Below, one piece after another: positions 1 to 25,994 of a DNA stretch of 64,000 nt (its first letter is position 1; each line of letters opens with the position of its first letter). The translations under genes were made by a program, and so were the position numbers. The stretch lies in assembly GCF_003018235.1 (NCBI RefSeq), contig NZ_CP027439.1, one strand, 5' to 3'. This DNA comes from Escherichia coli (GTDB lineage: Bacteria > Pseudomonadota > Gammaproteobacteria > Enterobacterales > Enterobacteriaceae). Under the pieces are notes generated by a model. The model did no database searches, was not told where the DNA came from, and was given only the letters and a program-made list of their open reading frames with translations.

Positions 1-1
1 C

Positions 2-1996
2 GGCATACTCAGTGCGCTGGGATACTCCATCAATACCCTGACAATGTTCGGGATGGTGCTGGCCATCGGCCTGCTGGTTGATGACGCCATTGTGGTCGTG
101 GAAAACGTTGAACGCGTAATGGCTGAGGAAGGGCTAAAACCCCGCGCTGCAACACGAAAGTCTATGGAGCAGATCCAGGGGGCGTTGGTCGGCATTGCGC
201 TGGTCTTATCGGCAGTGTTTATTCCTATGGCCTTTTTTGGTGGCAGTACGGGGGTTATCTATCGACAGTTCTCCATTACGATTGTCTCGGCGATGGTGCT
301 GTCAGTGCTTGTTGCCCTCACCCTGACGCCTGCGCTTTGCGCCACTATACTGAAGCCGGTAAAGCCCGGTGAGCATGCCAAAAACCGTGGATTTTTTGGC
401 TGGTTTAACCGCCGTTTCGACGCCAGTAGCTCGCATTATTCACGTGCTGTCGGTCGTATGCTGAACGGAACAGGACGCTACTTAATCATATACGGCGTGA
501 TTGTCCTGGGTATGGCCTGGCTGTTTGCACGTCTGCCAACCGCATTCTTGCCTTCAGAAGATCAGGGCGTATTGGCTACGCAGGCCGTCCTACCCGCAGG
601 CGCGACTCAGGAGCGTTCTCAGCTTATTCTGGATCAGATTAATGACTGGTATCTCAATAAGGAGAAGCAAAACGTTGCTAACGTCCTGACGGTCAATGGT
701 TTTGGGTTCGCCGGTCGCGGGCAGAATATTGGTATTGCCTTTATCGGCCTGAAAGACTGGTCTAAGCGTGAAGGTAGTGAAAACAGCGTTGACGCCATCG
801 CGGCACGCGCTAATGAAGCCTTCTCTAAGCTCATCGATGCGCAAATCGCCGCGTTCAACTTGCCGCCAATTATTGCACTGGGTAACGCAACCGGCTTCGA
901 TTTTGAACTGATTGATCAAGCTGGCCTGGGGCATGAAAAACTCATGGAAGCCCGCAATACCCTGCTCCAGATGGCGCAGCAGCACCCTGACGTATTGATG
1001 GCCGTAAGGCCGAACGGCATGGAAGATACGCCTCAATATCGGATCAATATCGACCAGCAAAAAGCATCAGCACTGGGCGTTTCTCTGGAGGATATTAACA
1101 CCACGCTAAGTACCGCCTGGGCAGGAAGTTACGTCAATGACTTTATGGACAGAGGCAGGGTTAAAAAGGTTTATGTGATGAGCGATGCGTCTTGGCGCAT
1201 GATGCCGGACGATCTCAATAACTGGTACGTTCGCGCCGGTAACGGTAAAATGGTTTCCTTCGCAAGTTTTGCTGACGCTCAGTGGATTTATGGCTCGCCG
1301 CGCCTTGAGCGGTTCAATGGTCTGCCGTCCCTGGAAATACTTGGACAACCTGCACCGGGTCGAAGCTCAGGCGAAGCTATGGCTCTTATGGAGCAGTTAG
1401 CATCGCAGTTACCGAAAGGTATCGGTCACGACTGGACCGGGATGTCATATCAGGAACGCCTGAGTGGTCAGCAGGCTCCGGCGCTTTATGCCCTGTCGTT
1501 GATTATCGTTTTCCTGTGTCTGGCAGCGCTGTATGAAAGCTGGTCTATTCCATTTGCTGTGATGCTGGTAGTACCGCTAGGCGTCGTTGGTGCGTTGCTC
1601 GCAACGACCTTGCGTGGTCTCAATAACGACGTCTATTTCGTTGTCGGCCTGCTTACAACCATCGGTTTATCGGCGAAGAACGCGATCCTGATCGTTGAAT
1701 TTGCCAACGACATGATGGTGAAGGAAGGAAAAGGTCTAATTGAAGCAACGCTTGAGGCAGCACATATGCGTCTGCGCCCGATATTAATGACCTCACTGGC
1801 CTTTATACTCGGGGTTCTGCCACTGGCATTAAGCCGTGGAGCTGGGTCTGGCGCACAGAATGCCGTTGGGACTGGTGTCATTGGTGGGATGGTCGCGGCA
1901 ACGCTGCTGGCGATCTACTTTGTGCCAGTGTTCTTTGTCGTTGTACGCCGTCGTTTTACTGGCAAGCGTGTCAATGATGACGAGGATGATGAGTAA
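2..1996 (+). CDS. RND multidrug efflux permease, AcrB family (5'-partial; C-terminal ~650 aa in window)
   Basis: Frame is open from position 2 ([38 protein letters not shown]...), colinear with AcrB-type transporters to the C-terminus; no start codon in window. Confidence 0.9.
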
Positions 1997-2001
1997 TCAA
2001 A

Positions 2002-2031
2002 ATCACCGGAGCCCCTGCTCCGGTGATTTTT

Positions 2032-2033
<2 letters not shown>
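2002..2033 (+). terminator. Rho-independent terminator after RND gene
   Basis: GC hairpin caccggagc/gctccggtg followed by T-run (attttttc) right after stop codon. Confidence 0.6.
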
Positions 2034-2955
<922 letters not shown>

Positions 2956-3067
2956 TTAATCATGAGAAGGGTTCATAGACGCAATCATTTTAGCCTCGTT
3001 ACTCTCAATAATCACAGTTGATACACTTCTTCACAGTTAAATTCTCCAATTGCTCAGCAGGTTTATA

Positions 3068-3838
3068 ATGAAGGTTTTAATTGTCGGTGCGACCGGCAGT
3101 ATTGGTCGTCATGTTGTAGAAATGTCGATAGAAATGGGACATCAATCGAAAGCCCTGGTCCGTTCCCCAAAAAAAAGAAAATTGTTGCCACAGGGAATTG
3201 AGATTGTTTATGGCGACGTCTCTGTCCCGGAAACATTGACCGGCATTGGAGATGATATCGATGCCGTTATTTTCACCCTGGGATCAGATGGATTAGGCCG
3301 CATTGGTGCTCGGGCAGTGGACTATGGCGGGGTGAAAAATATTCTTCAACAACTTAAGCATCGGCGAGTCAGAGTTGCGCTGATGACTGCCATCGGCGTG
3401 ACAGAAAGAGAAGGTTCGTATAACCGCCAGACGGAAGCGCATGACTGGAAACGTCGTGCGGAACGCCTGGTTCGTGCCAGCGGTCACCCCTATACCATCG
3501 TCAGGCCTGGTTGGTTTGATTACAACAAACCGAATGAACAACAAATCGTCATGTTACAGGGAGACAGACGTCATTCAGGCACACCGATCGATGGCGTGAT
3601 TTCCCGTAAACAAATAGCCAGAGTACTGGTTAGCGCATTAACAGACGATGATGCTAAGAATAAAACGCTTGAACTCATTGCCGAAAAAGGGAAAGAGCAA
3701 CAGAATCTCACCCCACTTTTCTCAGCCCTGCAACAGGACCGCGCAGATAAAAACGATGGTATTCATGATTTAAACAACATGCCCATGGACTCAGAGCCTG
3801 AGTGCGTTGTTCGTGATCTTAATGCAATGACGCAATAA
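3068..3838 (+). CDS. NAD(P)H-binding oxidoreductase, NmrA-like/atypical SDR
   Basis: Rossmann motif MKVLIVGATGSIGRHVV at N-terminus; start chosen at internal ATG of ORF 3050..3838. Confidence 0.75.
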   Translation: MKVLIVGATGSIGRHVVEMSIEMGHQSKALVRSPKKRKLLPQGIEIVYGDVSVPETLTGIGDDIDAVIFTLGSDGLGRIGARAVDYGGVKNILQQLKHRRVRVALMTAIGVTEREGSYNRQTEAHDWKRRAERLVRASGHPYTIVRPGWFDYNKPNEQQIVMLQGDRRHSGTPIDGVISRKQIARVLVSALTDDDAKNKTLELIAEKGKEQQNLTPLFSALQQDRADKNDGIHDLNNMPMDSEPECVVRDLNAMTQ

Positions 3839-3848
3839 GATAAATATA

Positions 3849-3878
3849 AAAAAGGCGGTATATTCTACCGCCTTTTTT
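3849..3878. terminator. Bidirectional hairpin terminator between convergent genes
   Basis: aaaaaaggcggta-tatt-ctaccgcctttttt, stem flanked by A-run and T-run. Confidence 0.65.
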
Positions 3879-3880
3879 AA

Positions 3881-4936
3881 TTACGCCTTCAATGAGGCCA
3901 TATCGATCACAAAGCGATATTTTACATCACTCTTTAGCATCCGCTGCCAGGCCGTGTTAATATCCGAAATATTAATCAACTCAATATCAGACGTTATCTG
4001 ATGCTTTGCACAGAAATCGATCATTTCCTGTGTCTCCGCAATCCCACCAATGACCGAGCCAGCCACCGATTTTCGTCCTAAAATCAGCGGCGCGCTGTTC
4101 AGCATCGGATTCAAGTCTCCCAGATACCCCACAAGCACCAGTGTTCCGCTCAGCGCCAGCGTCGGAATATAGGGATTCAGATCATGCACATAAGGAACCG
4201 TATCGATAATCAAATCAAACTGGTTATGTGCTTCCTGCATCTGCTTTTCATCGGTTGAAATAACAATATGCGTGGCCCCCAGACGGCGAGCATCGGCCTC
4301 TTTGTTCGGCGAACGACTGAATAACGTGACTTCCGCACCCAGCGCTTTGGCTAATTTTATCGCCATATGCCCCAGACCACCCAACCCAACGACCACAACT
4401 TTGCTGCCCGGGCCAACATTCCAGTGACGAAGCTGTGACCAGGTGGTGATACCCGCGCACAGCAGCGGTGCTGCACCTTTTAAATCCAGCGTATCAGGTA
4501 CTTTGATAACGAATTTTTCGGTGACCACAATCTTGTCCGAATAGCCGCCATAGGTTGGCATATGGTCATGCCTGTCAATGTCGTTATAGGTTAAGGTATT
4601 GCCCTCTTCACAGTACTGCTCCAGCCCCTGCTCACAGGGCTTACAATGCTGGCAGGAGTCCACCATGCAACCTACACCGGCATAGTCGCCCACGCGGAAT
4701 TCGGTCACCGCCTTGCCAATCTGAGTCACTCGGCCAATGATTTCATGCCCCGGCACCATCGGATATTTTACACCGCCCCAGTCATTAAACGCATTGTGGA
4801 TGTCTGAGTGACAAACGCCGCTGTATAAAATCTCGATAACCACATCGTTATCGCGCGGATCGCGGCGAACAAAATTGTGTGGTACTAAATCCTCTTTCGC
4901 GGCAAAAGCGGCATAACCTTTCACATTTAAGGTCAT
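3881..4936 (-). CDS. Zinc-type NAD(P)-dependent alcohol dehydrogenase (YahK/cinnamyl-ADH-like)
   Basis: GVCHSDIH zinc motif, GHEIIGRV, GLGGLGHMAIK Rossmann motif; start at ATG 4936 (MTLNVKG) preceded by GGAG. Confidence 0.9.
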   Translation of the reverse strand: MTLNVKGYAAFAAKEDLVPHNFVRRDPRDNDVVIEILYSGVCHSDIHNAFNDWGGVKYPMVPGHEIIGRVTQIGKAVTEFRVGDYAGVGCMVDSCQHCKPCEQGLEQYCEEGNTLTYNDIDRHDHMPTYGGYSDKIVVTEKFVIKVPDTLDLKGAAPLLCAGITTWSQLRHWNVGPGSKVVVVGLGGLGHMAIKLAKALGAEVTLFSRSPNKEADARRLGATHIVISTDEKQMQEAHNQFDLIIDTVPYVHDLNPYIPTLALSGTLVLVGYLGDLNPMLNSAPLILGRKSVAGSVIGGIAETQEMIDFCAKHQITSDIELINISDINTAWQRMLKSDVKYRFVIDMASLKA

Positions 4937-5013
4937 CGTTGAATCTCCGAATAAGAAATGAAACGACATGATGGTCACACGGCGGCCATCATGTCCTTGG
5001 AAGAGTAAGAGGG

Positions 5014-5412
5014 TTATTGCGGGCGTAATTCGCCATATTTATAAGATGCCGTTGCGCCGCCATCAATCAGCAGATCGCTGCCGGTAATGTAGGTACCATT
5101 AGGCCCAAACAGAAACTCTGCCAGCGCACCAATCTCATCCGGCGTGCCTCCCCGCCCTGCCGGCGATTTATCAAGCATATTGCGATAAAACGCACCCCGT
5201 TCTGCGCTATTAAGCTCGTCATAGGCTAGGGGCGTAAAGATGATCCCGGCACTGATGCAGTTAATTCGCGCCCCACGTTTGCCCCACTTCACTGCTTCTG
5301 ACATGACACGGAGTGCATTACAACGCTTGGAAATCTGGTAGGCGTATAAGCTGTCTTCAATATCTTTCATCAGTGGCAACTCGAGCAGTTCCTCCGGCGG
5401 TAACGGGAGGGC
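5014..5412 (-). pseudogene. Truncated SDR oxidoreductase (C-terminal ~130 aa only), paralog of the gene at 6366..7193
   Basis: Translation LPLMKDIEDSLYAYQISKRCNALRVMSEAVKWGKRGARINCISAGIIFTPLAYDEL... aligns to the C-terminal half of the intact SDR; N-terminal half absent. Confidence 0.8.
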
Positions 5413-5535
5413 AGAATTTTCAAGATGTAGGCGTTTTATTTTATGGTTAATAATCACCGCCACTCTTATGGTGAGAGCATAAAAAAGCCCCCACGGGCTT
5501 TATTACTAAATTCAATACAAACAACAAATTATGCT

Positions 5536-5573
5536 CTTAACGTACGTTTTCGTTCCATTGGCCCTCAGACCCC
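5536..5573 (-). repeat. Tn3-family 38-bp terminal inverted repeat (solo end)
   Basis: Reverse complement GGGGTCTGAGGGCCAATGGAACGAAAACGTACGTTAAG matches the Tn3-family IR consensus GGGGTCTGA...TGGAACGAAAAC...CGTTAAG. Confidence 0.8.
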
Positions 5574-6270
5574 TCATACGGCTCTCGATGTATTCGTGGC
5601 AATCGGTTGGAATAGCAAAGGGTAACTGGTTATCCCGTAATGATTTGTCAAAATCGCCAGATGGGATCAGATAATCATCGAAATTCCTGTATCGGCGAGA
5701 TCCCTTTACCCAGATGTCACCTGAACGCAAGACTCCCTTCAGCTCATTCAGCACGCAAAATTCGTAATATTTTCGGTCAATGCCGGTGGGAGTGATCACC
5801 ACCTTTCTCCAGCTTTCCGGGATAAACCTGGTTGGCGCGGAAGGTGGTACTTTTCGGAGTTGTTTTCGATACATCTCTCTGACGGTATCAAGCGCGTCAC
5901 TGAGCTGCATTGCGGTAGGTGCAGCCCTGAACTGCAACGCGGACAGCATCCGGGGGGCGTATTTACGCAGCGTACTGTATTTTTCTGTGATTAGATGCAA
6001 CGGGTCGAAGTTGTCCTTACGTGACAGGAGCCGCGTCTCTTCCACACTGTTGATAAATTCCTGCCAGGGAAGGACGTCTTCTATTGCGGCCCAGGGATCT
6101 TCACCGGATTCTCTGGCATTAAGCAATGCCTGCCCGACGGTAACGTATTGCTTCAGCTTACTCTGAATCAGCTTTCCCGTTTGCTGGAGTCGTTCGGCCT
6201 GCGTGCGTTTTGCCCTGCTGAACAGACTGCCCAGAATACGCTCGTGCAGATCAATAACTTCGTCAGTCAG
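5574..6270 (-). pseudogene. Internal fragment of a Tn3-family transposase (TnpA), truncated at both ends
   Basis: ORF 5512..6306 translation (LSALQFRAAP, KYYEFCVLNELKGVLRSGDIWVKGSRRYRNFDDYLIP) resembles the middle part of Tn3-type TnpA; ~230 aa of an expected ~1000. Confidence 0.5.
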
Positions 6271-6336
6271 CGTTCTAATGATACTGACGATTAATATAAA
6301 TAACATAGCCCAGCCAGAAGGCTGGGCTAACAGGAA

Positions 6337-6364
6337 GGCAGACTATTCACGTGTAGATAGTCTG
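6337..6364 (-). terminator. Hairpin downstream of SDR gene
   Basis: gcagactat-N10-atagtctgc, 9-bp stem immediately 3' of the minus-strand stop. Confidence 0.4.
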
Positions 6365-6365
6365 C

Positions 6366-7193
6366 TTATGGCCTGAGTTCCCCGTATTTATAAGAGGCCG
6401 TCACGCCGCCATCAATCAGAATGTCACTCCCGCTGATATACGTCCCGGCTGGCCCGAAAAGGAGTTCGGCTAATGCACCTATTTCATCCGGGGTTCCACC
6501 TCGTCCGGCTGGCGATTTTTCAAGCATATTCCTGTAAAACTCTCCACGCTCCGGACTCGTTAATTCGTCATAGGCCAGAGGGGTGAAAATAATCCCTGCA
6601 CTGATACAGTTAATGCGCGCTCCGCGTTTACCCCATTTCACGGCTTCCGCCATCACGCGCAGTGCGTTACCACGTTTGGATATTTGATAGGCGTAGAGGC
6701 TGTCATCAATTTCTTTAACGAACGGCAAATCCAGTAATGCCTCAGGTGTCAGCGTGGCTAATGCATCGGCCTGTGACTGGGTCAGGGCATCAACATTCAG
6801 ACGATGACTGGATTGTGAACCGATCACCACAGCGGAGCCTCCGGGGGCAATAACCTTACCAAATTCTTCAAATACGACAGCAGTCCCATATAAATCAACC
6901 CGAAGAATATCTTGGGCTTTGGCCTGTGAGGGGGAGAGCCCCGCTGTATGGATGACGCCTTTTATGTCCCCCAGCTCGGTGGCCGTGCGGACCAGGTTCT
7001 GGACTGACTGTCGGGAACTGACATCAACGACAGCGGTACTGATCGTAAAGCCTGCTTTTGACAGAATTTCTTCGGCTGACTGCGCACTTTCAGCCTTAAT
7101 ATCAGCCAGTAAAATATGCTTACCCACACTGACTCTGCGCGCAATCGCCTGCGCAATTGAGCCACTTCCAATGACCACAATGATCTCTTTCAT
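6366..7193 (-). CDS. Short-chain dehydrogenase/reductase (SDR) family oxidoreductase
   Basis: 275 aa; N-terminal glycine-rich motif IIVVIGSGSIAQAIARR and SDR catalytic YxxxK (YAYQISK). Confidence 0.85.
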   Translation of the reverse strand: MKEIIVVIGSGSIAQAIARRVSVGKHILLADIKAESAQSAEEILSKAGFTISTAVVDVSSRQSVQNLVRTATELGDIKGVIHTAGLSPSQAKAQDILRVDLYGTAVVFEEFGKVIAPGGSAVVIGSQSSHRLNVDALTQSQADALATLTPEALLDLPFVKEIDDSLYAYQISKRGNALRVMAEAVKWGKRGARINCISAGIIFTPLAYDELTSPERGEFYRNMLEKSPAGRGGTPDEIGALAELLFGPAGTYISGSDILIDGGVTASYKYGELRP

Positions 7194-7259
7194 GCGATGT
7201 TCCTTATTGTCGGTGGATCAGTGCGGCCTGATTACAGGCCGCAATCTCACTGGTTGATA

Positions 7260-8408
7260 CTACAATGCGAGTTTAAGGATTGTGGTTAACACATCCGGGG
7301 TGTAGGTCTCAGCCAGCCCGAACCAGCGGGTATTCCCTTCCAGGTTTTCCAGGATACGGGGAAAGTCTGCCTCCGTTATTCCCAGTTGTGACAGACGAGT
7401 TGGGGTACCAATTTTATCAAACCATTTTTCAAGCGCCAGGATGCCTTGTTCAGCGGTTTTCAAACCGAACAGATGCTGCGCAAAACGCTCAAACTGAGAA
7501 GGATTCTGGCTGTGGTACCACTTCATCCATGCAGGCATTACAACGGATAACCCTGCACCATGGGGAACATTAAAGAGGGCTGACAGAGAATGCTCAATCA
7601 TGTGATTAGGGTAGCTGAATCCTGACGTTCCGGCATAGATCAGGCCATTAAGTGCCAGCGTTGCTGCCCATGCAAATTCCGCCCGGGCGTTGTAGTCGCC
7701 CGCATCTGCCAGCAACATTTCCGTCGTCTCCATGACCGTTGCGATAACCGATTCAACCAGACGTGACTGGATTTTCGGCTGCACCGCTGCTGTGAAATAA
7801 CCTTCAATGGAATGGGCGATAATGTCCGCTGCCGAATAGACAAGATAGTCCCGGGAGACCGTCTGCATCAGTGCCGGGTTCACAACGGAGACTTTCGGAA
7901 ACGTATGCACGGAATGCAGAGCAAATTTTTCCAGCGTGGCGTCATTGGTGACAACGGCACCACCGTTCATCTCACTGCCGGTCGCGGCAAGAGTCAGAAC
8001 AGAAAACACGGGTAAGGCAGCTTCGATTTGTCCTTTACCGATAAACAAATCCCAGACGTCGTTCTCATAAAGTGCGCCTGCCGCGACAGATTTCGCACTA
8101 TCCAGTACAGAACCGCCGCCCACGCTTAAAATGGCATCAACCTGGTGAGCACGCGCCAGCTGAATACCTTCTCTGACCTTAGAAATCAGCGGGTTGCTGA
8201 CTATCCCGCCAAACTCTACATACTGAATGCCGTGCTTTGTCAGGCTGTCGCTGATAGTGCTGAACAAACCATCTCGCTTGATGCGGTCACTGCCAAACGC
8301 CAGCAGAACTTTACTGACTTTCTGCTCTGCTAGGATCTGGCCGATCAGCTTTTCTTTGTCTGCACCAAATTCAATTCGGGTCGGGTTATAAAAACTGAAA
8401 TTATCCAT
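7260..8408 (-). CDS. Iron-containing alcohol dehydrogenase (YqhD/BdhA-like aldehyde reductase)
   Basis: 382 aa, N-terminus MDNFSFYNPTRIEFG typical of Fe-ADH family. Confidence 0.85.
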   Translation of the reverse strand: MDNFSFYNPTRIEFGADKEKLIGQILAEQKVSKVLLAFGSDRIKRDGLFSTISDSLTKHGIQYVEFGGIVSNPLISKVREGIQLARAHQVDAILSVGGGSVLDSAKSVAAGALYENDVWDLFIGKGQIEAALPVFSVLTLAATGSEMNGGAVVTNDATLEKFALHSVHTFPKVSVVNPALMQTVSRDYLVYSAADIIAHSIEGYFTAAVQPKIQSRLVESVIATVMETTEMLLADAGDYNARAEFAWAATLALNGLIYAGTSGFSYPNHMIEHSLSALFNVPHGAGLSVVMPAWMKWYHSQNPSQFERFAQHLFGLKTAEQGILALEKWFDKIGTPTRLSQLGITEADFPRILENLEGNTRWFGLAETYTPDVLTTILKLAL

Positions 8409-8541
8409 CAGTCACCTCTGTGAAATTAAGTCTGTGAATGCTGTTCTGTGTAACAACACTATAAGCAACTGACTCACAACCAACCAGATGGTAATATGAT
8501 GAATCAGTTACAACTAAATGATGTAAATAAGAGTACTGCTC

Positions 8542-9498
8542 ATGATTAATGAACTGCGTTCAGTGACCACCTTTATCCGGACTGTTGAGCTGGGAAGTCT
8601 GAGTAAAGCTGCTGAAGCCCAGCAAATATCACCTCAGGCGGCGAGTAAGGCCTTAAAGCAACTCGAAAGCTCTCTGGGCGTGAGGCTGTTTCACCGCACA
8701 ACACGGAGTATGTCGCTCACTGAGGAAGGGCAACGGTTTCTCGAAGCAGCCAAACCAGCACTGACCGGGTTACAGCAGGCTTTTGCTTCTGTCCGGCAGA
8801 CGCGGGAGGGGTTTTCCGGGCCATTGCGCATAGTGGCTCCGCGTTCTGTTGTACAGCATATTATTCACCCTGTGCTGATTGAATATTGTCGGCTTTACCC
8901 GGAAGTTCAGCCTGATGTCCAGCTTGATGACGGGGTGGATAACTGGGTTGAGAAGCGCGTGGATGTTGGTTTTCGGATTGCTGTTTCACCGCAGGATGGG
9001 CTGATTGCCAGACGCCTGTTTCCGTTGCAACTGATTATATGCGCATCGCCTGCATATCTTCGCAAATATGGTATGCCGAAATCACTGCATGACCTCAGTA
9101 ATCACCGCTGTAATACATTTCGACATGCCGCAACCGGGCGATTACTTCCCTGGACTGTGAAGGAAGGAGACAACATACAGGAGCACTATGTTAAGCCTGC
9201 CATGTCGACAAATGATGAGATGCTGGAATTACATGCCGTCCTTGCCGGAGAAGTTATTGCTCAGGTTGCAGCACCGACAGCAGCGCAATACATACGATCA
9301 GGTCAGCTTGTGCCACTGTTACTGGAGAATATCGCTGATGTCCACAGCCTGTTTCTCTATTATGGGAGCCGGGTCGCTCAGCCACTTCGTATTCGCCGTT
9401 TTATTGACCTTGCTGTTGAGCGCCTGGCCAGTAGAAAGGGCTTTGTTTTTTCCTCAGAAGAACTGAGACAGGCACATATTGAAGGTATTGCAATGTAA
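8542..9498 (+). CDS. LysR-family transcriptional regulator
   Basis: HTH region plus LysR effector domain; divergent from Fe-ADH; paralog of 12146..13105. Confidence 0.9.
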   Translation: MINELRSVTTFIRTVELGSLSKAAEAQQISPQAASKALKQLESSLGVRLFHRTTRSMSLTEEGQRFLEAAKPALTGLQQAFASVRQTREGFSGPLRIVAPRSVVQHIIHPVLIEYCRLYPEVQPDVQLDDGVDNWVEKRVDVGFRIAVSPQDGLIARRLFPLQLIICASPAYLRKYGMPKSLHDLSNHRCNTFRHAATGRLLPWTVKEGDNIQEHYVKPAMSTNDEMLELHAVLAGEVIAQVAAPTAAQYIRSGQLVPLLLENIADVHSLFLYYGSRVAQPLRIRRFIDLAVERLASRKGFVFSSEELRQAHIEGIAM

Positions 9499-9717
9499 CA
9501 GTACTGTTCTTCCCGGTATCGAAGTTAATACCTTCAATAAATCCATCACACTGGATGACTTTCTCCCAGATGCACTTCCCTCTCTCACACACAACTCGTT
9601 TGTATAATGTTGCGTGGTGCGAGGGACATCTGCTCCCGCAGCGACCGGAAACATCCCTGCCGTCAGGCAGAGAGCGAGGGACGCTGCCAGACCCTGCATT
9701 TTTTTGTCTATTTTCAT
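9454..9717 (-). CDS. Possible small secreted protein (signal-peptide-like N-terminus)
   Basis: MKIDKKMQGLAASLALCLTAGMFPVAAGA looks like a signal peptide; overlaps the 3' end of the LysR gene by 45 bp; no other support. Confidence 0.2.
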   Translation of the reverse strand: MKIDKKMQGLAASLALCLTAGMFPVAAGADVPRTTQHYTNELCVREGSASGRKSSSVMDLLKVLTSIPGRTVLLHCNTFNMCLSQFF

Positions 9718-9823
9718 ACAGATTTCCTGATACAGGAACGCCCGATTCCTGTCTGTGAATACGTCATGCCAACGAACAGAGAAAAACGGCCCCTGTACGG
9801 AGCCGTTAGCATGGTAAAACAGG

Positions 9824-10600
9824 TTATGACAGGTTACCGGCGTAGACCTGTGTCTGGCCGCCGTCGATGGTAAGATTTATACCGTTGATAAAACTGCTGG
9901 CGTCGGATGCCAGGAACACGACGCCGTCCCCGATCTCATCAGCACGACCAACACGTCCGACGGGGATCTCCGCTGCACATTTGGCGGCGAAGGCTTCAAC
10001 CTCCTCCGGGGTCATACCCTGCACGGTTTCATAGCCTTCAGTCGGGATAGCCCCTGGACTGATAACATTCACGCGGATATTGCGTGTCTTGAGCTCAGTG
10101 GTCCAGACTCGCGCCATGCCGATAACTGCCGCTTTGGTCGCGGCGTAAGTCGTGTATTCCGGCAGACCAATAAAGGCGGTCATGGAGGACGTCAGAATGA
10201 TTGAACCGCCAGCATTCATAATGGGCAGCATGGCTTGTACGGTGAATAACTGCCCCTTAAGGTTGATGTTCAGCATGTTGTCGAAAAACTCTTCGCTCAC
10301 GTCCTCTAGTTTCTTGCCTATGTAGTAGCCGGCATTAGAGAAAATGATGTCCAGATGACCTTTTTCCAGCTGAATGACTGAGGCGACATTCACCATGTCT
10401 TCCTTGCGGGAGACATCGGCAACGATGGCACGGGCATTTGGGCCAATCTGTTTAATCGCCTCATCCAGGACGTCCTGGCGGCGGCCCACTATATAGACAA
10501 AAGCACCTTCTTCAGCAAGGCGCTTTGCGCCCCCCAGACCGAGTCCCGTTCCGCCACCCGTGACCAGTGCCACTTTACCTTTTAACGTTTGAACCGACAT
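9824..10600 (-). CDS. SDR family oxidoreductase
   Basis: 258 aa; KVALVTGGGTGLGLG cofactor motif and NAG motif. Confidence 0.9.
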   Translation of the reverse strand: MSVQTLKGKVALVTGGGTGLGLGGAKRLAEEGAFVYIVGRRQDVLDEAIKQIGPNARAIVADVSRKEDMVNVASVIQLEKGHLDIIFSNAGYYIGKKLEDVSEEFFDNMLNINLKGQLFTVQAMLPIMNAGGSIILTSSMTAFIGLPEYTTYAATKAAVIGMARVWTTELKTRNIRVNVISPGAIPTEGYETVQGMTPEEVEAFAAKCAAEIPVGRVGRADEIGDGVVFLASDASSFINGINLTIDGGQTQVYAGNLS

Positions 10601-10630
10601 AAATATTCCTCTGTTTGTAATACAGGTGGC

Positions 10631-10924
10631 TTACGCGATCGTCTGCACGACGCTCATGCAGGAGAGATCGATAATGTCTTTGATTTTCTCTCCGAGGGCC
10701 AGATGATCAGGGGCGCGCATATAGCGCTCCCAGTCCTCCCGGGAATCGAACTCGGCAATCAGCACCACTGCCTGGGTTTCTGACCAGTCGAGTGTCTTTT
10801 CAACGCTGAAGGCTTTGATCCTCGGGACGATGGAGGGCAATTGGCGAAGGATGTCCACTACAGCAGACAGCTCGGCCTCAGTCTTACCTGGATATGTTTT
10901 GCCTATGAAAATATGTTTCAACAT
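10631..10924 (-). CDS. Dabb-family stress-responsive alpha/beta-barrel protein
   Basis: 97 aa; size and sequence pattern typical of Dabb domain proteins co-transcribed with oxidoreductases. Confidence 0.6.
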   Translation of the reverse strand: MLKHIFIGKTYPGKTEAELSAVVDILRQLPSIVPRIKAFSVEKTLDWSETQAVVLIAEFDSREDWERYMRAPDHLALGEKIKDIIDLSCMSVVQTIA

Positions 10925-10935
10925 TCGGGGCTCCT

Positions 10936-11997
10936 TCAGGCATTTTTCAGCGTAGACATGTCAATAGAGAAACGATATTTGACGTCACCCTTTTCCAGGC
11001 GGACATAAGCTTCATTAATCTCCTGGATGCCGATGACTTCCACATCGGATGTGATGTTGTGCTGACCGCAGAAATCGAGCATTTCCTGCGTTTCAGCAAT
11101 CCCGCCAATAAGTGACCCGGACAGGCTACGGCCGCCAAAAATAAGGCTGTAGGCTGAGACATCAATTTTGTCAGCAGAAGCGCCAACCAGCGTCAGATTA
11201 CCTTCCGGATGCAGCATATTGAGGTAAACATTCAGATCATGTGGAGCGGATACGGTATCGAGAATAAAATCAAACGTACCGGCGTGAGCCTGCATCTCTT
11301 CCGGGTTTCGTGACACCACTACTTCATGAGCACCAACACGGAGTGCATCTTCTTTCTTGGATGGAGATGTGGTGAAGAGAACCACATGTGCGCCCAGGGC
11401 GCGGGCAAATTTTACGCCCATATGTCCTAGTCCGCCCAGACCAACGATACCCACTTTCTGACCGGCCTTTACACCCCAGCGACGGATAGGGGAATAGGCA
11501 GTGATGCCCGCACATACCAGCGGAGCAACACCTGCCAGATCGAGATTTTCCGGTACCTGAAGAACAAAATGCTCATCCACCACAATGCTTTCGGCATAAC
11601 CACCGTAGGTCACCGGAGCAGTACCGTAATTATCCGGTGAGTTATACGTCAGCACCTTGGTAGGGGAATACTGTTCACGATTCGCTTTACAGTGAGGGCA
11701 GGTTGGATCGGCATCGACCAAGCAGCCCACAGCGACAATATCGCCAGCCTTGTGTTTTGTCACCGCCGTGCCCACCGAGATAACCCGGCCTACAATTTCA
11801 TGACCCGGAACAATCGGGTAAATGGTTGGCATGGCGCTGCCGAACTCATCACGCACATGGTGAATGTCAGAGTGGCAAACCCCGCAGAACAGAATATCAA
11901 TCCGGACATCGTGCTCATTCGGATCACGACGCGGGATCGATAACGGTGCAAGTGGGGATGTTGCGGACGTGGCCGCATAAGCTTTGGTTACGTACAT
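10936..11997 (-). CDS. Zinc-type NAD(P)-dependent alcohol dehydrogenase
   Basis: GVCHSDIH, GHEIVGRV, GLGGLGHMGVK motifs; paralog of 3881..4936. Confidence 0.9.
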   Translation of the reverse strand: MYVTKAYAATSATSPLAPLSIPRRDPNEHDVRIDILFCGVCHSDIHHVRDEFGSAMPTIYPIVPGHEIVGRVISVGTAVTKHKAGDIVAVGCLVDADPTCPHCKANREQYSPTKVLTYNSPDNYGTAPVTYGGYAESIVVDEHFVLQVPENLDLAGVAPLVCAGITAYSPIRRWGVKAGQKVGIVGLGGLGHMGVKFARALGAHVVLFTTSPSKKEDALRVGAHEVVVSRNPEEMQAHAGTFDFILDTVSAPHDLNVYLNMLHPEGNLTLVGASADKIDVSAYSLIFGGRSLSGSLIGGIAETQEMLDFCGQHNITSDVEVIGIQEINEAYVRLEKGDVKYRFSIDMSTLKNA

Positions 11998-12145
11998 TCT
12001 TTGCTCCCGTTGATCCCGGCCAGAAGTGCCGGGAAGTGCGACTACTATAGGGAGCTAATTATCAATATAATAGATAGTAAATCATTGAAGCTGTTGCAAG
12101 TATTAATTGATAATAATGTGAGTTATCCTGATAGGGAAAGGCATC

Positions 12146-13105
12146 ATGCTGACAAAAGACATTCGCGCGATAGATATACTGGCGAAAGCTGTGGAACTGG
12201 GCAGCCTGCGCCAGGCCGCTCTCGCAAAAGGGGTGACCTCACAGGCCGCCAGCCAGACACTCGCTCAACTTGAAGACTCACTGGGGGTGCGCCTTCTGCA
12301 CCGCACAACTCGCAGCCTCTCTCTGACAGAGGAGGGCAGGCAACTGCTGGAAGCCACACAACCGGCACTGGCGGTACTGGACCGTGCCCTTACGCGTGCA
12401 CGGCAGGCAAAGGACGAGGTTGCCGGTCCGTTGCGTATTGTTGGTCCCCGATCGGCCTTCACACCGGTTTTATGGCCAGTCATTGACGAATACTGCCGGC
12501 GCTACCCGGACGTTCAGCCAGAAGTGCAGCTTGATGACAACGTGGGGGACTGGGTTCTTGATCGAGTGGACGTGGGGTTTCGGTTTGGTTCTCCGCCTGC
12601 AGAGGGGCTTATCGCACGCCCGCTGTTCCGTGCGCAACTGATTATCTGTGCATCACCGGCATACCTCCGCACGCATGGTGTACCCCGTTCGCTGGAGGAA
12701 CTAGCGTACCACCGCTGCAGCGTCTTTCGCCATCCGGGAACGGATGCAATATTTCCCTGGTACGTAAATATAGGGGGAGAAATCCAGACACGAGAGTTTC
12801 CTCCAACCGTGGCAACAAACAGCACAGACATAGAAGTTGAGGCCACGCTGACCGGACAGGTCATCGCACAGCTCTCATCATTGTCCTCAGCTGCGCTGAT
12901 CCGCGCAGGCCGTCTTGTGCCCTTACTAACAGAGCATGTGGCCAGCCACCTTCATCTGTACGCTTACTACGGGAGCCGCAAAGCGCAGCCGCTGCGGGTC
13001 AGAAAATTTATCGAGCTCGCCGTCGAACGGTTAACGGACAACCGGGAGCTGACTCTGACTACAGATGAACTGCAGACGTATTCTGCTGAAAGGCTGAACC
13101 AGTAA
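12146..13105 (+). CDS. LysR-family transcriptional regulator
   Basis: 319 aa, HTH plus effector domain; divergent from the ADH gene. Confidence 0.9.
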   Translation: MLTKDIRAIDILAKAVELGSLRQAALAKGVTSQAASQTLAQLEDSLGVRLLHRTTRSLSLTEEGRQLLEATQPALAVLDRALTRARQAKDEVAGPLRIVGPRSAFTPVLWPVIDEYCRRYPDVQPEVQLDDNVGDWVLDRVDVGFRFGSPPAEGLIARPLFRAQLIICASPAYLRTHGVPRSLEELAYHRCSVFRHPGTDAIFPWYVNIGGEIQTREFPPTVATNSTDIEVEATLTGQVIAQLSSLSSAALIRAGRLVPLLTEHVASHLHLYAYYGSRKAQPLRVRKFIELAVERLTDNRELTLTTDELQTYSAERLNQ

Positions 13106-13725
13106 GTGACATGTACGAAAACGCCCTTTGTGAAAACAAGACGGGATTCAGATTCATAACCCAGTCAGATATGTCTGCTCCTGACACTTAGCTGACTTTT
13201 AACGGGAGAACAGCCTGGCGGGCTTATATATACAGTTATCGCAATAATTTGCGTGATTTCCTGTGCTGGGGACAATAATCCGCTCAGCACAATAATCGTT
13301 CTTAATTAGTGCCCCTCATTCATCAATCCCTCTCATCTTCTCCGCAGATCCGAAAACCTCCAGAGTAGGATCTTGTCTCACCCTACCGGCGCTGCACACC
13401 ACGACAACACAAGATGTAGCGGCTCTGTCAACTGCCTTGGCTACCAGATGTTGTGTTTATCTCTTCGTTCTGTGAGGGGCGCTGCACGCCGGAAAACGGA
13501 GCTTTGCTCAGGGCGTAATCGTGCTACACTTCCGGAAAGTCGTGAATACGTGAAAAATCGGATCACCTGAAAACCGCCATCCGTTAATTTAATCCAGTGG
13601 TTATCAGGCTGCTAATTATCAGACAAAGAAAACATCATGGCAGGGAAAGTCCTGTGTGTGATAGTCAGGTGAGTTAGCGGTGGTGAGGTAATGATTGCGG
13701 TTTGTGATTATTTATTGGAAAAGGA

Positions 13726-14108: not shown

Positions 14109-15839
<1,731 letters not shown>

Positions 15840-16020: not shown

Positions 16021-16086
16021 TAACTTTTTCAGATGCAGGGATGCGGACAGATCATAAATCTTCATGTAATGTTTCAGGAGTCAGTT

Positions 16087-16521
16087 ATGGAAAATATGAT
16101 GAAAACTATGCGTGAGTATTTCCCCACGCGAACAGTAGTGTTCGAACAGTCTCTGGATATGTTTGGTATCACCCGGGGTAAGGATGGGAAGCTCATATTT
16201 CCCCGTCATTCTGATAACCGTTTCCCGATCGGGCGTATCCGCAAACGTCTGGCAGCTTATGGCTGGCGCGGAGAACGTCTGAATCAGGAAGTAGCGCGTA
16301 TCGTCGCGGGTCCTGGTGTTCTTCCTGAAAGAAATGATTACAGCATATTTTTTCCTTACGGATGGGAACGTAACCAGCTTACCCCTGAGATGCGGAGAAT
16401 GTTTCCCCGGAAGACTGGTCGCCGCGTGCTGCTTATGCTGGATGAGCTCCATTATATTCATGACGCCGGGGAGCGTAAGTCGTTTTCACCAGAAAGTAAT
16501 GAAGCACCCGAGGTATCATGA
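16087..16521 (+). CDS. Hypothetical protein, translationally coupled to the downstream recombinase
   Basis: ATG at 16087 preceded by CAGGAG; stop overlaps recombinase start (ATGA). Confidence 0.6.
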   Translation: MENMMKTMREYFPTRTVVFEQSLDMFGITRGKDGKLIFPRHSDNRFPIGRIRKRLAAYGWRGERLNQEVARIVAGPGVLPERNDYSIFFPYGWERNQLTPEMRRMFPRKTGRRVLLMLDELHYIHDAGERKSFSPESNEAPEVS

Positions 16522-17300
16522 ATTACCCTTCTCTTCCCGGACAGGCCTACGCCCCGGAAAAAGTGCATCTACCTATGGCCATCGATTACCCGGCAGCGCT
16601 GGCCCTGCGTCAGATGGCAATCGTCCAGGACGAACTGCCGAAATACCTGCTGGCCCCGGAAGTGAGCGCCCTGCTGCATTATGTCCCCGATTTGCACCGC
16701 AAGATGCTGCTGGCCACGTTGTGGAATACCGGTGCGCGCATTAACGAAGCGCTGGCCCTGACCCGGAGTGATTTTTCGCTGGTGCCACCCTACCCGTTTG
16801 TGCAACTGGCCACGCTGAAACAGCGGGCGGAAAAAGCGGCCAGAACAGCAGGAAGAACGCCTGCCGGCAGCCAGGCGCATCGCTTGGTACCGCTGTCAGA
16901 TAAACAGTACGTCAGCCAGCTGGAGATGATGGTGGCCACGCTGAAAATTCCCCTCGAACGCAGGAATAAACGTACTGGCAGAACAGAGAAAGCACGCATC
17001 TGGGAAATTACCGACCGCACGGTCCGTACCTGGCTCAGCGAAGCGGTTGAAGCGGCAGCGGCTGACGGGGTGACGTTCTCCGTGCCGGTGACACCGCATA
17101 CATTCCGTCACAGCTATGCCATGCACATGTTGTACAACGGTATTCCGCTGAAAGTGCTGCAGAGCCTGATGGGACACAAGTCAGTCAGTTCGACAGAGGT
17201 GTACACGAAGGTGTTTGCACTGGACGTAGCTGCGCGACATCGGGTGCAGTTCCTGATGCCCAGTGATGATGCTGTGGCTATGCTCAGGGGAAACACCTAA
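16518..17300 (+). CDS. Tyrosine site-specific recombinase (phage-integrase family, plasmid resolvase-like)
   Basis: 260 aa; catalytic residues in GARINEALAL, HTFRHSYAMHML and GHKSVSSTEVYTKV. Confidence 0.85.
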   Translation: MNYPSLPGQAYAPEKVHLPMAIDYPAALALRQMAIVQDELPKYLLAPEVSALLHYVPDLHRKMLLATLWNTGARINEALALTRSDFSLVPPYPFVQLATLKQRAEKAARTAGRTPAGSQAHRLVPLSDKQYVSQLEMMVATLKIPLERRNKRTGRTEKARIWEITDRTVRTWLSEAVEAAAADGVTFSVPVTPHTFRHSYAMHMLYNGIPLKVLQSLMGHKSVSSTEVYTKVFALDVAARHRVQFLMPSDDAVAMLRGNT

Positions 17301-17639: not shown

Positions 17640-18129
17640 TATGGGGAAAGGATTACGTGACGGGGCGGGTTTGCTAGCAGTTCTGCGAACGTACCAGCGC
17701 ATCGAGGACTGGTAATGCCAGCAGGCTATTACGTCCGGGCTGGAAAATCGAGAGTTGCGATGATGACGAGGCAAGGGGATCGCAGACATTAACCTCTGCA
17801 ATAGAATATCTATTGCGTGATTTATTATAAATGTTATCCCTTTATTGTTTTCCAATTATCCCCGCAGTTGAAGAAATCAGCACTGAATAAAATTTTCAAA
17901 ATTTTATTCATGATGCTTACAAATAAATTAATGTAGATGAATCATCGGGATAGACTATTCTACATCAACTGCATTCTTAATTTTACGTCAAAATCAAGCG
18001 TTGCACTAAAATAAATCCTTACTAGAATAGCTATCCAGAAGAATCACCATGTATTCTTCAGTCTGACCCTCGGGCGCAGATTCTTGTTGTATTAAAATAT
18101 TGGGAAAATAAATCAGGAGTGAAAATGCA

Positions 18130-18441
18130 GTGACAGAGACACGTTACACAACGTCTGAAAGCAAAAAAGCCCTGAATAATCAGAGCTTTATTACTGGATT
18201 GGAAATGACGGCCATCAAATCCAATTCAAAACACACCAAAGGCATGTCCTCAAGTGATGAAGATAATAGAAAACTATTCAATCTACGTCAACCGAATGCC
18301 TGCGGTAACAATCCCAAAGCCGTTATCGGAGGTACGATTATGTTGCCATTGCTCAACACGTTCATGAATGCCCCTCTTCTGAGTCAGGGGGCTACTATCC
18401 TGTTTCTTGGGCTTCTTATCCTTGCGCTCAAGAACCAGTGA
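18130..18441 (+). CDS. Small protein with C-terminal transmembrane tail (family A)
   Basis: C-terminal hydrophobic stretch IMLPLLNTFMNAPLLSQGATILFLGLLILAL; shares FNLRQ...GG...LL.Q pattern with 19121..19450; start codon uncertain. Confidence 0.5.
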   Translation: MTETRYTTSESKKALNNQSFITGLEMTAIKSNSKHTKGMSSSDEDNRKLFNLRQPNACGNNPKAVIGGTIMLPLLNTFMNAPLLSQGATILFLGLLILALKNQ

Positions 18442-18476
18442 TCGCACTGAGCTGGCTTCGGCCAGCTTCTTTACTT

Positions 18477-18500
18477 GGATAGAATCACCTGAACGTCCAG
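18477..18500 (+). repeat. Conserved inter-cassette site, copy 2
   Basis: GGATAGAATCACCTGAACGTCCAG, 36 bp after stop of 18130..18441. Confidence 0.7.
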
Positions 18501-18595
18501 TCGGGCGCTAATTTATAATAAATGACCGTAGAAGGGCCATTTCTACGGCAAAGTTCTGGAGATGATAAAATAAGGGCCTTAAACAATAAAAGGGC

Positions 18596-19003
18596 TTGCT
18601 TATGACACTGGACCAACTGCTTGAAATCCACGACTGCGCTGGGCTGAGCACCTATGAACAGGAAACAATTATATCTTTCATTAACCAGCGGCGAGGTGAC
18701 TTTGGTGTAAAAGCGTTTCCGGAAATTATGCCTCCAGTATCTTGCGGCTGGATCTCCAGAAGAACAAAACAACGTTCTCAGGAGCAGGCAGACGAAAATA
18801 GCTGGAATTATTATAAACAGAAGATTCAGGAATGGATAACGCTAATCGAATTGCATGAGGCATCACTTACTAGGGGGGAAAAGCTAAAGCGCTTTGTGGG
18901 AAAGCATAAATGGTGGTTAGGAGGCACTTGCGCAGTTATCGCATCAATTACAAGCACTGTGATAGCTAGCTGGATTCTTTCGTTATGGACTTGGGCTAAC
19001 TGA
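18596..19003 (+). CDS. Small protein with C-terminal transmembrane segment
   Basis: 135-aa ORF; C-terminal WWLGGTCAVIASITSTVIASWILSLW. Confidence 0.5.
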   Translation: MLMTLDQLLEIHDCAGLSTYEQETIISFINQRRGDFGVKAFPEIMPPVSCGWISRRTKQRSQEQADENSWNYYKQKIQEWITLIELHEASLTRGEKLKRFVGKHKWWLGGTCAVIASITSTVIASWILSLWTWAN

Positions 19004-19005
19004 CG

Positions 19006-19030
19006 TGACAGAAGCTGCGTTACGTCCAAG
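19006..19030 (+). repeat. Conserved inter-cassette site, degenerate copy
   Basis: GTGACAGAAGCTGCGTTACGTCCAAG directly after stop of 18596..19003. Confidence 0.5.
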
Positions 19031-19120
19031 TTGATAAAAAGTTGTTATCCACAGAGAACAGGGCGGTCATCCGGCGGGTTCAATAATATGATATTATTAC
19101 AGCACCTTAAAAAATAAGGA

Positions 19121-19450
19121 TTGCGGACGGATGATATATTGATAAAGGATACTCATGCGTGTAAAACGCAAAATACCCTGAGTAATCAGGGTATTAAACG
19201 CGGAAAAGTAAAGGTTGAGCGCTTTACATTTTCCATTCACACCAGAGGCGTGACTAAATCTAAAATTGATTCTACGGCAACGTTCAATCTACGTCAAATC
19301 GCCAATGGTTTTCCTGTTATGAAAATTACCGGAGGCTTCATGTTGTTAACCATCATCGACACCTATCTTCATGCTTCATTACTGACACAGATACTGGTAA
19401 TCCCGTTTATCTGTGCGGTGGTGTGGGCGGTAAAGAAAATCCGGGTATAA
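19121..19450 (+). CDS. Small protein with C-terminal transmembrane tail (family A paralog)
   Basis: ATFNLRQIANGFPVMKITGGFMLLTIIDTYLHASLLTQILVIPFICAVVWAV parallels the C-terminus of 18130..18441. Confidence 0.5.
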   Translation: MRTDDILIKDTHACKTQNTLSNQGIKRGKVKVERFTFSIHTRGVTKSKIDSTATFNLRQIANGFPVMKITGGFMLLTIIDTYLHASLLTQILVIPFICAVVWAVKKIRV

Positions 19451-19504
19451 CTTAAACATGGCTGGCTGAGAGGCCAGCCATGTTCAGTGAGTTTTGTTTC
19501 GAAT

Positions 19505-19529
19505 GGACAGAATAACCTGAATGTCCAAG
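19505..19529 (+). repeat. Conserved inter-cassette site, copy 3
   Basis: GGACAGAATAACCTGAATGTCCAAG. Confidence 0.7.
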
Positions 19530-19645
19530 TTTGCAAGGAATTGTGATCGTACTACAACCAGTGTCAACCTTCCTATAATGCAGATAATCTTCTATAATTT
19601 CTTTTAATTCTGTGGCGATGTCATTAAGGAAAAGAGGTATTATTT

Positions 19646-19903
19646 ATGGGAAATAAACACATCAGCGCCAGTGAAGCTAAAAAGATTAGTTCTTCAGTGA
19701 TACCTGATGCAGACAAAACACTTGATATGATATTTGGAGGAATAAAGCTCCAAGCAAGATTGGGCCAGACATCCTTTATTTATCCTGTCCATGAAAACAT
19801 TCTTGAGCAAGTGGTCAAGGTTCTAAGGGAATCTGGTTATAGGATTAACTCATCGAAGGCTAATGAGAATAACAAATTTATTATTGAAATTAGCTGGCAG
19901 TGA
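19646..19903 (+). CDS. Hypothetical small soluble protein
   Basis: 85-aa ORF with GAGG-like RBS (aaaagaggtattatttATG). Confidence 0.5.
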   Translation: MGNKHISASEAKKISSSVIPDADKTLDMIFGGIKLQARLGQTSFIYPVHENILEQVVKVLRESGYRINSSKANENNKFIIEISWQ

Positions 19904-19962
19904 AATAGAATCCGCTTTGTCTTTATTTTACCCTTGAAGCCACCCATTAGTGTGGCTTTTTT

Positions 19963-19998: not shown

Positions 19999-20445
19999 TT
20001 AATGAGAAGAATAGGTAGTTGGTATATTTAGCTTGAGTCCAATCTCCTTTATGAGATTGTAGGTATTTTCCTTACTGTTGCCAGCAAGTATTGAGGTGAT
20101 CTCATTAAGGTTTTGTGCTGCACCAAGAACTTCACCCTTTGATGGTACAAACTTCATACCTAAATAGCTTCTTTTTAGGCTACCAGGCAAGGCTGCATAC
20201 TTTGCCATTAACTGAGAAGCAGCATCTTTCAAATCGTGGATGGTTTCATGATTAGCTCTGAAATTTGTGATCGTCGCTTGCTCACGTAATAAAAGCGCTG
20301 TAATCCTCCCTAATTGTTCTCTGAATGATATATAAGGCTCAATGAATCTTTTTGCGATGAGTTGACCAACAACAAAAACGGTTACGCCGGTCAGAACAGT
20401 TACGGCAGCAGACGAACTCATAATTGTACCTAGTGACTGAATCAT
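19999..20445 (-). CDS. Hypothetical protein with N-terminal transmembrane helix
   Basis: 148 aa; N-terminal AAVTVLTGVTVFVVGQLIA; divergent from 20563..21042. Confidence 0.5.
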   Translation of the reverse strand: MIQSLGTIMSSSAAVTVLTGVTVFVVGQLIAKRFIEPYISFREQLGRITALLLREQATITNFRANHETIHDLKDAASQLMAKYAALPGSLKRSYLGMKFVPSKGEVLGAAQNLNEITSILAGNSKENTYNLIKEIGLKLNIPTTYSSH

Positions 20446-20483
20446 GGGGGTTATCCTATCTGGAGGGCAACAGCCTGTCTACT

Positions 20484-20507
20484 GTACAGAAAATGCTGTA
20501 TGTCCAG
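20484..20507 (+). repeat. Conserved inter-cassette site, divergent copy 5
   Basis: GTACAGAAAATGCTGTATGTCCAG between the divergent ORFs. Confidence 0.5.
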
Positions 20508-20562
20508 TCTGTGCTGGAATTATAATGGCAACCATGATCATCACAGGAAGAACGAGTAACAG

Positions 20563-21042: not shown

Positions 21043-21046
21043 CGCT

Positions 21047-21071
21047 GGGCAGAATAACCTGAATGTTTAAC
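21047..21071 (+). repeat. Conserved inter-cassette site, copy 6
   Basis: GGGCAGAATAACCTGAATGTTTAAC, 4 bp after stop. Confidence 0.6.
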
Positions 21072-23322: not shown

Positions 23323-23337
23323 CTTAAGGACTGTTAC

Positions 23338-25992: not shown

Positions 25993-25994
25993 AG

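Follow-up and report, generated by a model that had tools for sequence, protein, structure and literature searches.

Efflux transporters belonging to the resistance-nodulation-division (RND) family provide the main intrinsic multidrug defence in Gram-negative bacteria and were long thought too large and too host-dependent to move on plasmids. OqxAB, and later TMexCD-TOprJ, made it clear that mobile RND pumps can matter clinically. Plasmid-borne RND pumps are by now an established category, which includes these two systems and older examples on pB4 and pNDM-CIT (PMC7064769). Here we describe a new and rare cargo of this known kind, seen through the 3' part of an AcrB-like permease gene at the left end of a 64,000-nucleotide stretch of an Escherichia coli contig (NZ_CP027439.1, assembly GCF_003018235.1), hereafter the window. 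It is highly probable that this fragment (positions 2-1996) represents the downstream two-thirds of the third and last gene in an efflux operon of three genes, carried in a chromosome-derived island on a conjugative F-type plasmid. The operon would encode a small AraC activator of the RamA/MarA family, an AcrA-like periplasmic adaptor and an AcrB-paralog RND permease, and would lie within an island of about 13 kb or more containing LysR regulators and NAD(P)-dependent aldehyde/alcohol oxidoreductases. The regulator, the adaptor and the 5' end of the permease gene fall outside the window and were read from relatives, chiefly pSCU-111-1 (NZ_CP051728.1), a conjugative E. coli plasmid with a closed circular sequence.

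The pump shares with AcrAB-TolC of E. coli (AcrB, b0462) its HAE-1 RND family, its length class and an alignment from end to end. The proton-relay residues and the switch loop are identical, and in both systems the adaptor gene lies directly upstream of the permease gene and a linked channel gene is absent. In contrast, the adaptor is only 56% identical to AcrA, a RamA-like activator gene stands upstream in the same orientation where acrAB has the divergent TetR repressor AcrR, residues of the drug-binding pocket are changed, and the window-type pump is plasmid-borne. A second AcrAB-like module on the chromosomes of Erwiniaceae, Rahnella and Shimwellia belongs to the same paralog clade (80-87% amino acid identity) and has the same order of small AraC-type regulator, adaptor and permease, for example in Erwinia sp. 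SLM-02 and Shimwellia pseudoproteus. That module is chromosomal and has other flanking genes, whereas the window allele and its 94-100% relatives have added oxidoreductase and LysR genes and are mobile.

TMexCD-TOprJ and OqxAB are likewise chromosome-derived RND operons captured on conjugative plasmids (PMC7064769), but they represent other RND lineages, and their resistance phenotypes are proven whereas none is reported for the pump described here. TMexCD-TOprJ furthermore has its own outer-membrane channel and a TetR-type regulator, in contrast to the AraC-type activator and the lack of a channel gene in the window-type operon. RamAp, the plasmid ramA of IncHI2 plasmids, is also a small plasmid-borne activator of the MarA/RamA family, and raises host acrAB-tolC expression (PMC9927516). 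The pump-linked regulator differs from it in being joined in one operon with its own pump, and has only 57% identity to RamA and plasmid-borne RamA, with a score of 152.4 bits against the cutoff of 180 for the RamA equivalog NF012144. Identity of the regulator with RamAp was ruled out, RamAp being a true ramA and a different gene (PMC9927516).

Translation of the forward strand from position 2 to 1996 gives an uninterrupted frame of 664 codons that ends in a stop. The gene extends past the left edge of the window, its first 380 codons lying upstream, and the full-length product has 1044 amino acids; an ATG at position 44 that had been listed as the start is an artefact of the open reading frame listing. 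The fragment alone scores 1103.5 bits with TIGR00915, the HAE-1 RND permease subfamily (cutoff 940.35), and its alignment with the AcrB model, which has 1049 positions, covers 382-1037. All 664 residues are found unchanged in the 1044-residue permease of pSCU-111-1. The full-length permease, taken from this 99.7%-identical plasmid copy, scores 1760.9 bits with TIGR00915 and 1609.2 bits with NF000282 (cutoff 1250). The initial annotation, made from the window sequence, had seen here the 3' 1.95 kb of an AcrB-family efflux permease, and the open frame and the TIGR00915 score bear this out.

The same annotation called the gene AcrB-type, which is right for membership of the AcrB family of RND permeases and wrong if AcrB itself is meant. 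The full-length permease is 74% identical to AcrB of E. coli K-12 and scores 1900.9 bits with the NCBIfam AcrB equivalog NF011706, under the cutoff of 2150. In a neighbour-joining tree, which is distance-based and without bootstrap support, it groups apart from the true AcrB proteins, in a sister clade of paralogs that also contains proteins of 1040-1050 amino acids from Pantoea, Erwinia, Tatumella, Rosenbergiella, Rahnella, Shimwellia and Mangrovibacter. One species, Pantoea osteomyelitidis, contributes one protein to this clade and one to the AcrB clade, which indicates paralogy. The score below the equivalog cutoff, the 74% identity and the separate clade rule out an AcrB orthologue, and the permease appears to be an AcrB paralog. 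Over the window fragment the identities to the E. coli proteins are 75.0% for AcrB, 70.9% for AcrF and 65.2% for MdtF; the latter two values rule out AcrF and MdtF. OqxB was excluded by a score of 849.6 bits, far under the NF000037 cutoff of 2200.

The six proton-relay residues of AcrB (Table 1) are all identical in the window translation, and the switch loop F615-G616-F617 and F628 are also conserved. Compared with AcrB, four residues of the drug-binding pocket are substituted, namely F610L, F664A, E673A and M573A (window nucleotides 686, 848, 875 and 575). With the relay and the switch loop kept and the pocket residues changed, a pump mechanism is expected for the permease, although not necessarily with the substrate range of AcrB, and the four substitutions may shift that range.

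In pSCU-111-1 the operon begins with a gene for a 113-residue AraC-type (RamA-like) regulator, located 28 bp upstream of a gene for a 389-residue AcrA-like adaptor, which in turn ends 6 bp before the permease start; the cluster of three genes occupies positions 23678-28358 of the plasmid. The initial annotation had pointed upstream for an acrA-like partner and a regulator, and both are thus found directly upstream of the permease gene in this plasmid. The adaptor gene adjoins the permease gene in pSCU-111-1 and in six other contexts. The order of regulator, adaptor and permease recurs in Klebsiella plasmids, a 1.07-Mb Salmonella contig and the Erwinia sp. SLM-02 chromosome, as well as in Klebsiella contigs, metagenome contigs (94% amino acid identity) and Shimwellia. 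No gene for an outer-membrane factor adjoins the operon in pSCU-111-1, the Klebsiella plasmid and contigs, Salmonella, Erwinia, the metagenome contig or Shimwellia; in the window the convergent LysR gene follows the permease gene directly, with no such gene between them. The AcrB paralogs AcrF, AcrD and MdtF of E. coli all use TolC. By analogy with them, and given that a linked channel gene is missing, the window-type pump is expected to depend on TolC. No terminator was found in the 35-bp gap between the permease gene and the LysR gene, the totals of the scan being at chance level.

When the permease gene was compared with the alleles from a Klebsiella plasmid and a Salmonella chromosome, the ratio of nonsynonymous to synonymous substitution rates (dN/dS) was 0.02 at a dS of about 0.8, implying that the gene is maintained under strongly purifying selection. 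This bears on the proposal that the pump is inert cargo, either truncated or silenced here or unable to assemble with the TolC of E. coli. Truncation would be allowed by the position of the 5' end outside the window, but the permease is full-length in each relative checked (pSCU-111-1, the Klebsiella plasmid, Salmonella and the Klebsiella contigs). Decay is visible in neighbouring genes, since an oxidoreductase gene is truncated and pSCU-111-1 has gaps without annotation at the places taken in other islands by aldo-keto reductase and hydrolase genes; the 664 codons themselves hold no stop or frameshift, and none of the catalytic residues is changed. The element is very rare and one of its carrier plasmids is described without resistance genes, yet the low dN/dS extends across alleles, and the use of TolC by the three E. 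coli paralogs argues against a failure of assembly. We therefore consider inert cargo improbable.

The favoured reading, a working plasmid-borne pump, suggests the following mechanism. The permease would form a trimer, use the proton gradient and act together with the adaptor and host TolC to expel amphiphilic toxic compounds. Its natural substrates might be plant-derived phenolics or aldehydes, given the neighbouring reductases and the habitats of the relatives, and antibiotics could possibly be exported too. The island would have come from a chromosome within the Enterobacterales, its former host being an environmental bacterium that probably lived in association with plants, and it now resides on a conjugative F-type plasmid.

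A number of points weigh against this reading. Because of the four pocket differences, a drug spectrum like that of AcrB cannot be assumed. No MarA/RamA-type binding site was found upstream of the operon. The carrier plasmid MT570100 (p13294-1NR, from Klebsiella) bears the suffix 'NR' for no resistance genes (PMC8957301). Gene neighbourhood and the habitats of relatives are all that suggests the proposed substrates. The integrity of the operon in the replicon of the window is assumed from a 99.7%-identical relative, and its plasmid carriage is read from the contiguity of the sequence, with the topology taken from relatives. In the scan for MarA/RamA-type sites a single match was obtained in 35.6 kb, inside the adaptor gene, with 0.81 expected by chance; not being in a promoter and standing at chance level, it was dropped as evidence of regulation.

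We further considered whether the operon constitutes an unrecognised transferable efflux determinant, in which the AcrAB paralog and the RamA-like activator would raise tolerance to antibiotics, biocides or plant toxins, both through their own TolC-dependent pump and through activation of the host mar/ram/sox regulon in the manner of RamAp. We regard this as a tentative and rather unlikely extension. The window adds a different lineage to the mobile RND pumps, namely a putative close paralog of AcrB that is accompanied on its conjugative F-type plasmid by an activator of the MarA/RamA type. Records of E. coli, Klebsiella and Enterobacter already contain alleles that are identical to it or nearly so. 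Were the pump active against drugs, it would be a resistance determinant missed by current screening; were it to export only plant or environmental toxins, the island would be an ordinary one for niche adaptation. Either way it offers a clear example of chromosomal detoxification modules captured by plasmids through Tn3-family activity.

The location of the operon was examined by local BLAST of the whole window against its two closest closed plasmids, pSCU-111-1 and pDEC5B-4 (NZ_CP038392.1). Positions 1-5573 match pSCU-111-1 at 99.7% nucleotide identity and positions 1-13363 at 99.6-99.7%, with one inversion that flips the RND block and has its breakpoint in a 174-bp Tn3-family end; an IS100 is present in pSCU-111-1 only. 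From 13363 to 34067 the window matches pDEC5B-4. Hence both sides of the join between island and backbone appear to be closed-plasmid DNA. Among closed replicons, the identical allele is located in pSCU-111-1 and diverged alleles in two Klebsiella plasmids.

These matches speak to the possibility that the sequence comes from a chromosome into which an F-type plasmid has integrated (Hfr-like), or from a cointegrate of plasmid and chromosome, with the pump marking the chromosomal side. The view begins at position 1 with nothing to its left, and the initial annotation was correct that the window alone cannot choose between a plasmid-borne operon and a plasmid joined to a chromosome. In its content the island resembles chromosomal DNA, the 1.07-Mb Salmonella contig holds a close allele, and Erwinia and Shimwellia have orthologous modules on their chromosomes. 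However, the exact allele with its flanks (99.7% identity) is embedded in the plasmid DNA of a closed circular replicon, none of the E. coli chromosomes among 5,426 complete genomes carries it, and the island, bounded by Tn3-family remnants, meets plasmid sequence at a boundary common to pSCU-111-1. Integration is in our view very improbable. Of the two options in the annotation, the plasmid-borne efflux operon is the one supported by this block in a closed conjugative plasmid; its mention of chromosome-type DNA applies to the origin of the island, as the relatives in Salmonella, Erwinia and Shimwellia indicate, and nothing suggests a plasmid joined to a chromosome.

No single record in PLSDB or among complete E. 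coli genomes covers the whole window, and derivation from one source record was rejected, the window being a mosaic of two plasmid types. The lack of a spanning record might be taken to indicate an assembly chimera, with island and backbone wrongly joined at a repeat, all the more as the join of pSCU-type to pDEC5B-4-type sequence at 13363 occurs in no other record and repeated Tn3 and insertion sequence (IS) elements are present. The join is, however, not at a repeat, there being no IS end or long shared sequence at that point, and such mosaicism is normal for F-type plasmids. The junctions 5405/5406 and 5573/5574 are both independently reproduced in pSCU-111-1. The island ends at exactly position 13363 in both the window and pSCU-111-1, where the adjoining DNA is different. 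The same end nucleotide, the different neighbours and the absence of a repeat favour a genuine element boundary, which seems to fit better than misassembly, and a chimera is hardly to be expected. No IS or transposon end and no long repeat was recognised at the join. Beyond 13363 the window continues with the pDEC5B-4-type sequence and pSCU-111-1 with a ccdAB region. The favoured placement thus remains a conjugative F-type plasmid that carries the pump within an acquired island.

Table 1. Features of the window, with positions, strand and basis of assignment (SDR, short-chain dehydrogenase/reductase; ADH, alcohol dehydrogenase).
Feature	Position	Strand	Basis or remark
RND (HAE-1) efflux permease, putative AcrB paralog, 3' 664 codons and stop	2-1996	+	translation; profile match; 100% amino acid identity to pSCU-111-1 permease
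Proton-relay residues D407, D408, K940, N941, R971, T978	80, 83, 1676, 1679, 1769, 1790		alignment to AcrB
LysR-family regulator	2032-2925	-	NCBIfam LysR matches; convergent with pump gene, divergent from next gene
NmrA-like NAD(P)H-binding oxidoreductase (annotated 'SDR family')	3068-3838	+	Pfam NAD_binding_10, NmrA; RefSeq coding sequence pSCU-111-1 18068-18838
Zn-dependent NAD(P) ADH/aldehyde reductase (Ahr-like)	3881-4936	-	RefSeq coding sequence pSCU-111-1 18881-19936
Truncated SDR oxidoreductase gene, C-terminal part only	5014-5405	-	NF005395; right end of RND block
Tn3-family transposon terminal piece	5406-5573	-	sequence reading; 37-bp inverted repeat 5537-5573, exact match
Tn3-family transposase internal fragment (remnant, 700 bp)	5574-6273	-	NF033527, profile positions 259-507 of 954 only
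Second oxidoreductase/LysR module of island	6274-13363		family matches; 99.6-99.7% nucleotide identity to pSCU-111-1
SDR	6366-7193	-	second module
Fe-ADH	7260-8408	-	second module
LysR	8542-9498	+	second module
SDR	9824-10600	-	second module
Zn-ADH	10936-11997	-	second module
LysR	12146-13105	+	second module
Maintenance/replication backbone, pDEC5B-4 type	13363-34067		98.7-99.9% nucleotide identity to closed plasmid NZ_CP038392.1, across record origin
Tyrosine recombinase	16518-17300		backbone
ParA	23251-24204		backbone
ParB	24204-25235		backbone
UmuC/UmuD	26075-27828	-	umuDC-like error-prone polymerase V operon directly beside replicon
Five tandem 21-22-bp iterons	28108-28214	+	immediately upstream of rep; sixth copy at 27970
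Rep_3-family RepFIB-like initiator	28252-29139	+	Pfam PF01051; 'RepB family plasmid replication initiator' in pDEC5B-4

The genes that follow the pump in the island are listed in Table 1. The LysR gene next to the permease gene keeps the same relative place in pSCU-111-1 and the Klebsiella plasmid, and is conserved in Salmonella and two Klebsiella contigs. The product of the Zn-dependent ADH gene scores 305.9 bits with the NCBIfam Ahr-like model, under the equivalog cutoff. At the right end of the RND block the SDR gene is cut at 5405 by the end of a Tn3-family element, so that its product covers only positions 147-275 of the 276-position model NF005395. Homology to the intact islands of the Klebsiella plasmid, Salmonella and the two Klebsiella contigs stops at the same nucleotide, and those islands carry the full SDR of 276 amino acids. 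The 174-bp segment 5400-5573 that contains the transposon end is present twice, in inverted orientation, in pSCU-111-1. The transposase fragment next to it is 93-94% identical in nucleotide sequence to tnpA of many plasmids, and positions 5406-6273 thus hold two different Tn3-family remnants side by side, a transposon end and an internal piece of tnpA.

In the second module, the SDR, Fe-ADH and LysR trio (6264-9518) is found at 98% identity in the E. coli chromosome NZ_CP196316.1, and positions 6264-8000 at 97.8% on an E. albertii plasmid. Given these separate occurrences, the island appears to be a composite of separately circulating modules. Fuller copies of the island add aldo-keto reductases, a flavodoxin, a CMD-family protein, a cupin and a BhsA-like protein.

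The initial annotation had further described the permease as contiguous with a plasmid backbone and about 26 kb from a RepFIB replicon. The contiguity is confirmed by the par, umuDC, rep, hok/sok, FinP/traJ and tra genes in the window, and from the stop codon of the pump gene to the start of rep the distance is 26.3 kb. The replicon has a Rep_3 domain and iterons; its initiator shares no more than 45% identity with that of the RepFIB replicon in plasmid F, which makes 'RepFIB-like' the safer term. The backbone comprises a tyrosine recombinase, toxin-antitoxin genes, parAB, umuDC, rep and a leading region, and its match to pDEC5B-4 is interrupted by an IS3 insertion (14581-15839) and at 17640-19503 and 20397-21255. 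The tra region begins at about 42 kb and fills the remainder of the window; it is colinear with annotated F-type plasmids and 85-98% identical to pSCU-111-1.

The alleles of the pump fall into two lineages. The first, at 99-100% identity to the window, comprises pSCU-111-1, K. pneumoniae contigs, Enterobacter vonholyi and a Pantoea metagenome-assembled genome; the second, at about 87-88% nucleotide and 96% amino acid identity, comprises two Klebsiella plasmids and a Salmonella chromosome. The chromosomal relatives at 80-87% amino acid identity are mostly plant- or insect-associated Erwiniaceae. Collectively, the island appears to be of chromosomal origin and to have been captured by plasmids. 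A scan of 100,044 species representatives for the donor gave an AcrA-like protein of Edwardsiella (54%) as nearest to the adaptor; because the scan used exact 8-residue patterns and misses even 85% orthologues, it has low power and is uninformative about the donor.

At 95% amino acid identity or more the pump is present in 3 of 72,556 PLSDB plasmids, and it occurs in one of the 5,426 complete E. coli genomes. In the resistance-gene prediction of PLSDB, neighbouring matches are labelled acrB or adeF and this gene is unlabelled. A literature search that covered plasmid-borne, mobile or transferable RND pumps of AcrAB-like type, a second AcrAB in Pantoea or Erwinia, and the carrier plasmids yielded no paper on the operon. 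The 'AcrAB-like' pump of PMC13182041 was set aside as a candidate for the same operon, since it is chromosomal in K. pneumoniae and sameness is not shown.

Several smaller features of the window and its relatives were also recorded. The backbone contains open reading frames of 148-334 amino acids without a Pfam match at 14109-14597, 14794-15798 (minus strand), 16033-16521, 19999-20445 (minus strand), 20563-21042 and 22344-22952. In pDEC5B-4 the gene aligned with the last is annotated as a RelB/DinJ antitoxin, and the other five also gave no match when scanned against NCBIfam. The GC content is low, at 39-45%, across the 18-25 kb stretch. A full-length match to the Hfq-binding small RNA family isrC (14650-14772, 130 bits against a cutoff of 39) lies inside or beside the IS3-family insertion. 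Other Rfam matches are the antisense RNA AS-pc01 (31534-31631, minus strand), sok (38891-39067, plus strand), the traJ 5' untranslated region with FinP (43005-43116) and an antisense RNA to traG (62798-62883, minus strand), all of which are typical of F-like plasmids. Plasmid pSCU-111-1 also encodes cytolethal distending toxin, two-partner secretion systems, a UbiD/UbiX decarboxylase pair and a tannase/feruloyl esterase, the last two of which fit a link to plant-phenolic metabolism.

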